From Bryobacterales bacterium (GTDB taxonomy: Bacteria > Acidobacteriota > Terriglobia > Bryobacterales > UBA6623), in contig CBDCOC010000004.1 in NCBI GenBank assembly GCA_965219605.1, forward strand, positions 121,619-185,618: DNA of 64,000 nucleotides, written 5' to 3'. Below, piece after piece: positions 12,014 to 15,665 of this stretch. The notes under the pieces are model-generated. The model was not told where the DNA came from and searched no databases. It worked only from the letters and a program-made list of their open reading frames with translations. Within the stretch, counting starts at the first letter, position 1. Each line of letters starts with the position of its first letter. The position numbers and the translations under genes are program-made.

Positions 12014-14104
12014 CTAGCTCGCATGGACGGCCAGGTCGTGTCCGTCCATGTGTGGGGGAGGCTCGAAGCCGAACAGCCGCAGCGCGGTCGGTGCCATGTC
12101 TTCGATTCCGGGATCGGGCGCGGCGAAGTCCCGGTTGCAAAACACCACGCCCGGGATCAACGGCGGGTCAACGCAGTGATCCCCGCTCCAAGCCTTGAGG
12201 TTGTCCTCGAAAACCGGCCCGCTGAGCTTGCCTAGGGCCACTCCCCAAGAACTCCGGTAGCCGGGGCTGTAGCCAACGACCACGTCCGGCGCCGCTTCCA
12301 CGTACGGCCCGCTGTAGACGTCCGCCTTGGGATAGGCGCGATGCACGGCAATTGCGTCGCGCTCTTCGTCGCGCAGGCCCGTGAGCTTGCCGGCGATCTC
12401 CTCGCACAGCGCGTTCGCTGCGGCCCGGCGGACGATGCCATTGGCCTCGCGGCCCTCGACATTGAGATAGATGCCTGCCAGTCCAAAGCTGTACGCCTTG
12501 GTCCTGCTCCAGTCGATCCCGCGCAGGTAGCCCTCCGAGCGCGCGTCCCCGTCCGCGGCCAGGTAGCCCTCTTGCAGGAGCCATGCATTGAGGTTCACGC
12601 CGCGCTGGAAGGACTTGAAGCCGTGGTCCGAGAGCACGAAGAGAACCGTCCTGCCGTCAACATGGCGCATGGCCTTGCCCACGATCCCGTCCATGCGCTT
12701 GTACAGGTCTTCAATGGTTCCCTTGTAGCGCTCGAACGAGTTGCCATTGGCGGCATGGGCCGGATGCTCCGGTTCGAGGTAGCGGTAGAACATGTGCTGG
12801 ACGCGGTCGGGCGTGTCGAACACGCAAGCCACCACGCCCTTCTTGGTGCGCTCGAGAGCCGACTCGAACATCGCCTCTCGCTCGCCGCAGATCTGTTCCG
12901 CCTGCTCGAGGAAGGCGTCCTCGTCCACGACGCGTTCGTTGAGGGCCCAGGTGTCCTCGGCCAGCCCCAGTGTCGAGTAGTCGCCCAGCAGCTTGGCCAG
13001 GTAGGGCGCGTAGAAGGATGGGTGCGAGATGGGCAGGGCCGGCTTTTCGGGATCGATCGATATCGGCGAAAGGTACAGGCGCACGTGCGGCGCGACCTGC
13101 GCCAGGCGAAACTGGGCGATGCCGCTAACCTTGATGCCCAGCCCGGCCCGGAAGGTCAGGCGCACCCAGGGCGTGAAGCGGCCCGGGGTGAGGTCGTAGC
13201 GTTTCCCGCCGATCTCCAAGCGGCCGCGGCCCGGCCCCTCGTCGATCCGCAAGCGGAAGGGTATGCGCAGCTCTCCGGCCCCCTCGCGGACCGAGTTCTC
13301 CGGCCCGCGCACTTCGCCCACGTAGGCTCCGGATTCGCGGCGCAGCGCATAGCACGCGCCGCCCTCTTCGAATGCGGCCTCCGGCGGCGCAGTGGTGAAG
13401 ACCTGGAAGCTGCCTTGCGTGCCGAGCAGGTCCGGGGTACACATGGCCGACAGCAGCCGCCCTTGGAACGGCTCGGGCGGGAATGTGATCGGCACGCGCA
13501 GGATCGTCGAGCCCACCAGATGATCGCCCAGCAGGGCCCAGAACGGCTTGCTCTTGCGCCGCATGTCCACCGGAGGCTTGCTCAGCGGCACTCGCCAGGG
13601 GCCGATCTTCCATACGCGCGAGGGCTGGCGGACCCTTGACGAGGACAGTTCCGGCCGGTAGGTGCGCAGGTTGCGGTTGAGGAAGTCGAACAGGTTGTGC
13701 TTGCCGGGATTGGTCCCGGTGGCGAATGTCGACCACGCCACCGGGGACAGGGCGGGGTAGGTTGTCCGCAGCCGGCTGTAGCGCCCCTGCGCTCGCAGCT
13801 TGGCCAGGTTGGGCAGCTTGCCTTCTTCCAGCAGGCGCTCGACCAGGTCGGGCTCGAGACCGTCCAGGCCTAGGAAGATGAGCTTGCGGATGCTTGCCTT
13901 GCGGTAGCCCTGCCCGCCGCGCACGGCGCGCCATGCGATGCGGAACGGCAGGATCAGGAAGGCAAGCGCCCCGGACACCAGGGCGGCGAGCAGGCTGAAC
14001 AGCGACCCGACGAACGCAAAGCCGGCCCCCGGGCCGACGTACGCCTCCAGCGGGGGCGCGAGCACCAGGCCCGCGGCCAGCAATGCGGGCGGCAGAGCGC
14101 GCAT
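12014..14104 (-). CDS. Alkaline-phosphatase-superfamily protein (type I phosphodiesterase/nucleotide pyrophosphatase-like), membrane anchored
   Basis: ...LIFLGLDGLEPDLVERLLEEGKLPNLAKL...TYPALSPVAWSTFATGTNPGKHNLFDF...VLSDHGF.... ATG at 14104 (MRALPPALL...) is preferred over the ORF start at 14224. Confidence 0.75.
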   Translation of the reverse strand: MRALPPALLAAGLVLAPPLEAYVGPGAGFAFVGSLFSLLAALVSGALAFLILPFRIAWRAVRGGQGYRKASIRKLIFLGLDGLEPDLVERLLEEGKLPNLAKLRAQGRYSRLRTTYPALSPVAWSTFATGTNPGKHNLFDFLNRNLRTYRPELSSSRVRQPSRVWKIGPWRVPLSKPPVDMRRKSKPFWALLGDHLVGSTILRVPITFPPEPFQGRLLSAMCTPDLLGTQGSFQVFTTAPPEAAFEEGGACYALRRESGAYVGEVRGPENSVREGAGELRIPFRLRIDEGPGRGRLEIGGKRYDLTPGRFTPWVRLTFRAGLGIKVSGIAQFRLAQVAPHVRLYLSPISIDPEKPALPISHPSFYAPYLAKLLGDYSTLGLAEDTWALNERVVDEDAFLEQAEQICGEREAMFESALERTKKGVVACVFDTPDRVQHMFYRYLEPEHPAHAANGNSFERYKGTIEDLYKRMDGIVGKAMRHVDGRTVLFVLSDHGFKSFQRGVNLNAWLLQEGYLAADGDARSEGYLRGIDWSRTKAYSFGLAGIYLNVEGREANGIVRRAAANALCEEIAGKLTGLRDEERDAIAVHRAYPKADVYSGPYVEAAPDVVVGYSPGYRSSWGVALGKLSGPVFEDNLKAWSGDHCVDPPLIPGVVFCNRDFAAPDPGIEDMAPTALRLFGFEPPPHMDGHDLAVHAS

Positions 14105-14133
14105 ACGACCATGGTAGCCCGCTCTGCGACTGC

Positions 14134-14712
14134 CTAGCCTGCGCCCCCGCTCGATTCGTCGCTGCGTGTCGACCGCATCAACTTGCCCAGGTGGGCCTTC
14201 GCCGCGAATGCGAGCAGTATGCACAGCCCGATGGGCAGGAACGCTATGTTCGCGACGGTCCGCAAGAATTCCGGATTGCGCACGCCGCTGCGCGAAACGG
14301 CCAGGCGCGCCGCTTGGCGCCAGTGCGCGATGTCCAGCCAGTACAGGCCTTGGTCCTTATCGGCGACAAGGATCTTTGCCGGCAGCAGCAGGATCAAGGC
14401 CACTTTCCACCTAGCGAGCAGCCGGCTGTCGCTGCAAAGGATCGTCGCGGCCGTGTGGCGCTGCCGGCGCATCTCCAGCAGCATCTGCCAGCGTTCGGCG
14501 GCAGTCGCGGCGTCGAACGAACGCCAGCGCCGGCCGGACGAGCCCAGTTCGTCCGGGGCGTCGGGCAGGCAGGTGAACAAGTCCAGCGGCGCCTGGCCGC
14601 AGATGGAGGCGCGCAGCTCGGGTATCAGGGCGTCTAGATCCGAGCGCGGGCCGCTCTCGACTAGCAGCATCCGCTCGATCGGCGGCACCTTCTTGCGCAG
14701 GAACCAGCGCAT
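14134..14712 (-). CDS. Hypothetical membrane-associated protein
   Basis: ORF from the ATG at 14712 (MRWFLRKKVPPIERMLLVESGP...). No family recognised. Confidence 0.4.
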   Translation of the reverse strand: MRWFLRKKVPPIERMLLVESGPRSDLDALIPELRASICGQAPLDLFTCLPDAPDELGSSGRRWRSFDAATAAERWQMLLEMRRQRHTAATILCSDSRLLARWKVALILLLPAKILVADKDQGLYWLDIAHWRQAARLAVSRSGVRNPEFLRTVANIAFLPIGLCILLAFAAKAHLGKLMRSTRSDESSGGAG

Positions 14713-14745
14713 CTCTTGGTAGGGTAGCGCGGTACAATGGCAGGT

Positions 14746-15093
14746 ATGGCCAAAGTGCGCTTCTATCAGAACCCCAGTTGAACGAGCTGCCGCAAGGCTA
14801 GGAGTTTCCTGGCCGATCTTGGCGCCGATCTGGAATTGGTCAACCTGCGCAAGGGGTTGAGCGTCGAGGACTTGGACGCGCTGATCGGGGATCGCGACCA
14901 CCTCAAGTTCCTCAACTCCCGCAACGTTCTCTACCGCGAGCTGGGCATGAAGGACAATCCGCCCGGGCGCGAGGAAGCGTTGCGGCTGATGTCGGAGAAC
15001 CCCAACCTGATCAGGCGGCCGCTGAGCGTGCAGGGCGGCAAGGTGGTGGCGGGATTCGCGCGCGACGAACTCGCCGCCCTCTGCGAGGGCTAG
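14746..15093 (+). CDS. Spx/ArsC-family thioredoxin-fold protein with an in-frame TGA at 14779-14781 (selenocysteine candidate, or a nonsense pseudogene)
   Basis: ATG at 14746 gives MAKVRFYQNPS-TGA-TSCRKARSFLADLGADLELVNLRKGLSVEDL.... The TGA falls where the first Cys of the family CxxC motif (PSCTSCRKAR) lies. A hairpin lies at 14796-14814. Confidence 0.55.
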
Positions 15094-15177
15094 CGAGGCT
15101 GCGCCGCAGGCCGGCGCAAGGGATCGAAACTTGGCTCAATCGCCAGCCTTGCGCGGAAACAGGAAGTCCGGCAGGGC

Positions 15178-15253
<76 letters not shown>

Positions 15254-15282
15254 TTTCTAGCGCTATGCCGCCCGGCGAGCGC

Positions 15283-15357
15283 TGGAGCGGGAGACGGGAA
15301 TCGAACCCGCAACCAACAGCTTGGAAGGCTGTGACTCTACCATTGAGTTACTCCCGC
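15283..15357 (-). tRNA. tRNA-Gly (anticodon TCC)
   Basis: Reverse complement GCGGGAGTAACTCAATGGTAGAGTCACAGCCTTCCAAGCTGTTGGTTGCGGGTTCGATTCCCGTCTCCCGCTCCA. Confidence 0.9.
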
Positions 15358-15377
15358 CGTGCCCGCGAGCGCGCGAT

Positions 15378-15453
<76 letters not shown>

Positions 15454-15591
15454 CTAACGCGCTCCTCACCCATGATACACCGGGGAGCATCGCTTGCATC
15501 TCTTGCAAGCATTGGCCATGAGCCGCCGCGCGACGGGCGGCGCTTCGCTTCCAGCGCCGTCACCAGTGGCAGCTGCGATGCTTGCGAACGT

Positions 15592-15665
15592 TGGCTGGGA
15601 GGCAGGGATTCGAACCCCGATAAACAGATCCAGAGTCTGCCGTGTTACCGTTACACCACCTCCCA
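15592..15665 (-). tRNA. tRNA-Gln (anticodon CTG)
   Basis: Reverse complement TGGGAGGTGGTGTAACGGTAACACGGCAGACTCTGGATCTGTTTATCGGGGTTCGAATCCCTGCCTCCCAGCCA. Anticodon loop CTCTGGA. Confidence 0.85.

Follow-up and report, generated by a model that had tools for sequence, protein, structure and literature searches.

ArsC-like selenoproteins in bacteria

Selenocysteine (Sec)-containing proteins of the ArsC superfamily are known from bacterial genomes and metagenomes. Zhang et al. (2006, PMC1794560) described "ArsC-like" as a bacterial selenoprotein family with members in Desulfuromonas and Desulfotalea, the 2008 GOS survey (PMC2398784) counted 42 Sec and 238 Cys sequences of "Arsenate reductase 2, cd03032, UxxC", and "Arsenate reductase-like protein, COG1393, UxxC" is among the entries of a 2022 review. 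The original prediction for the locus studied here had stated that such proteins were reported in metagenomic surveys, and this literature bears it out. The locus lies in a 64,000-nt stretch of DNA from a Bryobacterales bacterium, which we refer to as the window.

The product of this locus shares with the catalogued UxxC proteins an ArsC-superfamily fold and a Sec in place of the first Cys of an N-terminal U-x-x-C motif, and the catalogued proteins were likewise predicted from a TGA followed by a hairpin. The Desulfuromonas ArsC-like selenoprotein even carries an identical U-T-S-C motif, but its BLASTP match is confined to the first 23 residues of the window's product. The GOS UxxC set belongs mostly to the Desulfuromonas-type branch, and the nearest GOS read has 27% identity to the window's product. 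Against the curated model NF041106, "ArsC family (seleno)protein", the product scores 21 bits where the cut-off is 85. The window's branch further differs from the catalogued UxxC selenoproteins in that it comes from Bryobacterales, is partly sponge- or marine-associated, and is represented in databases by truncated ORFs only. The gene is therefore an unannotated Bryobacterales branch of a catalogued selenoprotein type, distinct from the published UxxC ArsC sequences.

An open frame interrupted by a single TGA

The gene and its landmarks are as follows.

14746–15093, + strand: coding sequence of the predicted ArsC/Spx-fold selenoprotein, 115 codons including Sec12, stop codon TAG at 15091–15093
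14779–14781, + strand: TGA, predicted U12, first position of the U-T-S-C redox motif, placed by orthologue alignment
14788–14790, + strand: TGC, Cys15, presumed resolving cysteine of UxxC, invariant in a 51-sequence alignment
14836–15093, + strand: truncated 85-aa ORF with a TTG start, as reported by gene callers, the 3' part of the 115-codon frame

From the ATG at 14746 the frame reads MAKVRFYQNPS, meets the TGA at 14779–14781, resumes with TSCRKARSFLADLG and stays open to the TAG at 15091–15093. Reading it out confirmed that the 85-aa ORF of the gene track is the continuation of this frame past the TGA, as had been claimed; the start of that ORF at 14836, which had been called a Met, is in fact a TTG codon. 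Sequencing runs of several studies contain this stretch nearly verbatim. In four of the runs, which come from three studies, Logan contigs reproduce positions 14650–15150 at depths of 197, 356, 4.2 and 18.3, and show nothing different at or near the TGA. Elsewhere in the window TGA serves as the stop codon of 17 of 38 long ORFs, which indicates that the codon has not been reassigned. Two scans of the window and related loci for other TGA-interrupted genes returned, besides the focal gene, only off-frame low-complexity readings, and a search for RNA sequencing runs containing the selenoprotein gene found none. Run X6 holds a strain variant with SNPs at 14903, 14925 and 14943 in the selenoprotein gene, the first of which (T>G) would change Leu53 to Arg; the TGA and the hairpin downstream of it are unaltered in this variant.

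Fold and family placement

We searched profile libraries with Cys written in place of the TGA. The product matched the Pfam family ArsC (PF03960) over residues 7–111 with 67.3 bits against a gathering cut-off of 24 (E 1.5e-18), and the Glutaredoxin family of Pfam gave a weak match at the N-terminus. AlphaFold2 (AF2), run on the 51-sequence alignment, predicted a confident single domain (pLDDT 93.3, pTM 0.81) with β1 at residues 3–8 and α1 at residues 13–24, which would place U12 at the helix tip, the classical position of CxxC in thioredoxin folds. With Foldseek, Spx, YffB and uncharacterised ArsC-family structures aligned to the model at a TM-score of about 0.8, and authentic ArsC at about 0.7. 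When the sequence is aligned to solved structures, the TGA column coincides with the leading CxxC cysteine of Spx (1z3e and 7f75; Cys10) and of the ArsC-family structures 2m46 and 3fz4, in agreement with the original assignment of the TGA to the first cysteine of the family motif.

None of the NCBIfam curated models reached its cut-off for the full-length protein. The best-scoring curated family was Spx/MgsR (TIGR01617), with 64.1 bits and a cut-off of 75.05. The N-terminal switch region is nearly the same in Spx of Firmicutes (PSCTSCRKAR, against PSUTSCRKAR here, so that Sec takes the place of Spx Cys10), the ...NP.LIRRP... segment is likewise near-identical, and the folds superpose at a TM-score of about 0.8. 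However, residues ~116–131 of Spx, which we take to be the YjbH/ClpXP degradation region, have no counterpart in a protein that ends at residue 115, and Gly52 of Spx, presumably important for contact with the RNA polymerase alpha-CTD, aligns with His52 here and with Tyr in many relatives. We take the C-terminal extension and Gly52 to be defining for Spx function.

Glutaredoxin-coupled ArsC (R773, 1i9d) belongs to the same superfamily and has its nucleophile Cys12 at the homologous position. It differs from the window's product in having a single Cys (CxxS) and not a dithiol-type motif; the ArsC model TIGR00014 scores 37.5 bits against a cut-off of 106.05, and the structures superpose at a TM-score of about 0.7 with 18–20% identity. 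No ars genes were found near the selenoprotein gene in the window or in the related loci fetched. Closest by both sequence (E 1e-13 to 1e-9) and fold are 2m46 (S. aureus SACOL0876), 3fz4 (S. mutans), 3gkx (B. fragilis) and YffB (1rw1). The uncharacterised ArsC-family structures have a similar size of about 115–120 aa, and carry Cys where the window's protein has Sec; 2m46, 3fz4 and 3gkx are CxxC-type at the same place. The protein is thus a member of the ArsC superfamily with an Spx-like switch region, and is not a demonstrated member of Spx, ArsC or NF041106.

TGA and cysteine alternate at codon 12 under purifying selection

We surveyed orthologues with one genome per species, which gave 19 loci, all from metagenome-assembled genomes (MAGs) of Bryobacterales or other Acidobacteriota. 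At the column of codon 12, 15 of the 19 named genomes carry TGA and four carry TGC or TGT, the alternation between Sec and Cys codons that the original prediction had proposed to look for. The 15 TGA-form genomes encode proteins 53–83% identical to the window's product. All orthologues fetched from ENA, which fall into four groups, have the TGA at this same codon, and the complete chromosomes OZ252099.1 and OZ241376.1 carry TGA-forms. A maximum-likelihood tree distributes the Sec-forms over several clades interleaved with Cys clades, so that at least two switches are needed. Among TGA-form genes, 19 of 21 end in TAG or TAA and two in TGA. TGA is also the stop codon of two of the four Cys-forms, and the long ORFs of the window use TAG and TGA about equally often. 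The scarcity of TGA stops in the TGA-forms may mean that a second UGA is avoided, or may be due to chance.

Selection acts alike on the two sides of the TGA. Across eight indel-free orthologues, pN/pS is 0.37 for codons 2–11 and 0.38 for codons 25–115, and the upstream codons have accumulated many synonymous changes (four different Pro codons occur at position 10, for example). The likeness of codons 2–11 to the rest of the gene indicates that the upstream segment is translated in this frame. A nonsense-mutated pseudogene or a sequencing error is hardly conceivable given the purifying selection on both sides of the codon, the same TGA in at least 21 distinct sequences of several clades, and four independent assemblies that are identical there.

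Public gene calls tell a different tale of the 5' end. The 14 nearest clusters in a collection of 5.8 billion proteins, at 66–96% identity, are all 78–91 aa long and cover 67–79% of the query; the full-length relatives of about 113 aa in the same collection are more distant, at 59–66% identity. These uniformly short calls of 78–91 aa are what would be expected if translation ended at the TGA, the functional product were the 85 aa from the TTG at 14836, and the upstream 11 codons formed a leader or regulatory uORF. We regard this as very improbable. In the DNA around several of the truncated calls, the TGA stands at the same codon behind an open, conserved MAxVRFYHKPS in every case, and the 11 upstream codons are homologous, in frame, to β1 of the full-length Cys relatives and of Spx, and have a pN/pS like that of the remaining codons. 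The downstream start also varies, the calls of close relatives being 85, 87, 89 and 91 aa long. Moreover, a product begun at 14836 would lack β1 and the active site, as originally noted, and by the AF2 model also the greater part of α1, from what is confidently predicted to be one domain. The internal TGA is almost certainly read as selenocysteine at the active site, as it is in many other Bryobacterales.

A SECIS-like hairpin is specific to the TGA-forms

One further element of the gene follows the TGA.

14796–14814, + strand: SECIS-like hairpin, 8-bp stem 14796–14803/14807–14814 with loop GUU at 14804–14806; alternatively a 7-bp stem with loop AGUUU

The GGCTAGG/CCTGGCC pairing that had been pointed out at 14796–14814 is present, and amounts to 8 bp once the A-U closing pair is included. 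Its stated distance of 17 nt after the TGA holds when counted from the T of that codon; counted from the A, it is 14 nt. The GTT of the apical loop (14804–14806) was also described correctly, and GpU is kept in the loop of every TGA-form. An outer CAAG/CTTG extension had been considered possible, and we did not see it conserved in relatives.

Hairpins of 6–8 bp, starting 14–15 nt after the UGA, occur in 21 of 21 distinct TGA-form sequences, two of them with one internal mismatch. In the Cys-forms (n=4), only 3–4 bp pair at the same site. The loops of the TGA-forms are GUU/AGUUU, AGUU or AGUUU(G/C), with GGU in one sequence. The column at which the 5' arm ends is constant across TGA-forms, and the 3' arm takes three registers: between clades it shifts by one base while the 5' arm and the loop AGUU stay put. 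Stem differences are paired by clade (GGCTAGG/CCTGGCC, AGCAAGA/TCTTGCT, GCGAAG/CTTCGC and GCGCGG/CTGCGC), and the encoded peptide varies with the stem (ARSFLA, ARSFLL, AKSLLR). The conserved SECIS-like structure that the original prediction called for is thus seen as a hairpin specific to the TGA-forms whose loop is kept while its stem changes on both sides. The registers, with loops of 3/5, 4 and 6 nt, arise without an indel in the coding frame over hairpin columns 18–37 after the TGA (L013, L014, L018, L023 and L019–L026).

Because the hairpin occupies three registers, a fixed-column covariation count is unsuitable, and we used a register-aware table together with a null of synonymous recodings. 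Even so, the paired differences do not count as independent events, since the hairpin lies within a coding sequence and the genomes come from related organisms. With codon usage taken from the window only, each TGA-form was compared with 1000 synonymous recodings of its own peptide and exceeded their mean stability in every case, with tail fractions of 0.001–0.18; the corresponding fractions for the Cys-forms were 0.15, 0.51, 0.69 and 1.0. The loop Ser codon is AGT in 18 of 19 aligned TGA-forms, a codon that makes up 5% of the Ser codons in the window, and the Cys-forms have Ala at this position. Synonymous divergence is lower over the hairpin-side codons 13–24 (pS = 0.42 against 0.56). Taken alone, the window's hairpin does not stand out from dinucleotide-shuffled sequences (z = -1.56), and Rfam, searched with the window at the gathering threshold and with 14700–14900 at a permissive E-value, returned noise and no SECIS family. 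Support for the candidate SECIS is accordingly that of comparison between genomes, not of the fold energy of a single sequence.

The published model of the bacterial SECIS reportedly requires a small apical loop, with a G in its first two positions, at 16–37 nt from the UGA, and structures of SelB with RNA are said to show recognition of the loop GpU. With a spacing of 21–22 nt and a GpU in its loop, the hairpin agrees with the SECIS model and with GpU recognition by SelB.

Selenocysteine machinery in the order

We searched for Sec machinery by tblastn with E. coli queries (NC_000913.3). No selA, selB or selD was found in the window or in the related loci, which together amount to about 507 kb, a negative that says little because these are slices of ~20 kb from genomes of 4–7 Mb. 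As a positive control, the E. coli SelA query recovers Bryobacterales selA at E 1e-79 to 1e-82. ARAGORN found no tRNA-Sec in the window and 26 loci, and we found no case of selA and a TGA-form gene on one contig.

The supplements of PMC1794560 contain SelA, SelB and two FdhA sequences of Solibacter usitatus, which is entered under Acidobacteria in the trait table. Queried with S. usitatus SelA, protein collections return more than 120 clusters at 72% identity or above, some of them named Bryobacteraceae. The TGA-form itself is carried by a Candidatus Solibacter MAG (L024) and by a Solibacteraceae MAG. We take Solibacter to belong to Bryobacterales in GTDB. Sec machinery is hence documented in the order, by S. 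usitatus and by many SelA homologues, with SelA widespread in Bryobacteraceae, which lends indirect support to its presence in the window's own genome. Two Solibacter-like genomes have a solitary selA between tRNA-Pro(CGG) and efp (L032, 5868–7332; L033, 5868–7335), without the adjacent selB of the E. coli selAB operon.

UGA could also be decoded without selenium. Allo-tRNAs with a possible role as nonsense suppressors are reported from Acidobacteria, and a tRNA(Cys) that mimics tRNA-Sec exists in some bacteria (PMC5389517); an opal suppressor of either kind, an acidobacterial allo-tRNA or a tRNA-Sec-like tRNA(Cys), might read through the codon and insert Cys, Ser or another residue. A hairpin that is confined to the TGA-forms, fixed in position and topped by GpU is, however, a signature of SelB-dependent decoding and not of general suppression, and a general suppressor would be costly where TGA is a frequent ordinary stop, as it is in the window. 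The site is, besides, a redox-active Cys position, at which exchange between Sec and Cys is the rule (PMC1794560), and we found no unusual tRNA in the window. On balance, suppression appears improbable, and decoding as Sec is the reading we carry forward.

Proposed decoding and redox function

We consider it very likely that the gene encodes a genuine selenoprotein, decoded by a SelB-type SECIS mechanism and working through a selenenylsulfide cycle between U12 and C15. The product would be a 115-residue cytoplasmic redox protein of the ArsC/Spx (thioredoxin-like) fold with a U12-x-x-C15 active site. During its synthesis, the hairpin downstream of the UGA, with its GpU apical loop, would act as a bacterial SECIS: it would bring SelB and its Sec-tRNA(Sec) to a ribosome that has paused on this codon. 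Once the protein is folded, U12, at the N-terminal end of α1, would provide its selenolate as the nucleophile and cycle with C15 via a selenenylsulfide that a thioredoxin- or glutaredoxin-type system could re-reduce.

As to the physiological role, we rather clearly favour an oxidoreductase or redox relay over an Spx-type regulator of RNA polymerase. A Sec-based redox sensor of the Spx type, which would bind RNA polymerase or another partner and control transcription through a U12–C15 switch, is allowed by the near-identity of the N-terminal switch region to that of Spx and by the Spx-like fold. It is disfavoured by the missing C-terminal tail and the non-conserved Gly52, and we judge it unlikely. 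If true, a Sec-containing Spx would be the first selenoprotein regulator of transcription, and Sec might tune an Spx-type sensor to a faster response, or to a lower oxidant level, than Cys-Spx.

Annotation and comparative use

The chief value of the probable selenoprotein described here is that it corrects the annotation of a gene which gene finders truncate because of its internal TGA. In the public collections searched, the orthologue group is present only as N-terminally truncated ORFs of 78–91 aa without the active site, so that counts of the Bryobacterales selenoproteome, including that of sponge-associated members, are too low. The orthologues also form a natural Sec/Cys series, in which Sec-forms bearing the hairpin in three registers enclose nested Cys-forms without it, with at least two switches in the tree. 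Such a series is useful for studying the reasons for Sec in place of Cys in a CxxC switch and the ways in which coding sequence can accommodate a SECIS, and leaves the general knowledge of selenoproteins unchanged.

Genomic neighbourhood and lineage

The surroundings of the gene contain the following features.

14733–14738, + strand: -10-like TACAAT, 7 nt before the ATG, inside the conserved TAGCGCGnTAcAAT
14137–14712, - strand: divergent 192-aa ORF, start 33 nt from the selenoprotein ATG, no Pfam match
12017–14224, - strand: gene of about 700 aa with a Phosphodiest domain (PF01663), following the 192-aa ORF
15178–15665, - strand: convergent tRNA cluster Thr(GGT)-Gly(TCC)-Thr(TGT)-Gln(CTG), directly after the selenoprotein gene

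In the window and in loci L001, L003, L006, L009–L012 and L029, the conserved TAGCGCGnTAcAAT ends 6–7 nt before the start codon (ATG or GTG). There is no conserved Shine-Dalgarno sequence at 14720–14748 of the window or in the same region of these eight loci, and a scan for consensus promoters, including sigma-70, and for terminators found nothing. The -10-like character of TACAAT at 14733–14738 suggests that the selenoprotein mRNA may be leaderless or nearly so, with the UGA at codon 12.

In all close relatives, the 192-aa ORF and the Phosphodiest gene accompany the selenoprotein gene in conserved synteny. The tRNA cluster is kept in L001–L012 and is missing beside the more distant orthologues L013–L026.

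Its occurrence in metagenomes and the neighbouring genes of close relatives suggest that this Bryobacterales lineage is host-associated, possibly sponge-associated. Across runs X1–X20, several studies yielded the window's sequence at high depth. In sponge and marine metagenomes it is found at a lower word share. Ankyrin-repeat genes lie a few kb from the selenoprotein gene in close relatives (L003–L005 and L030).
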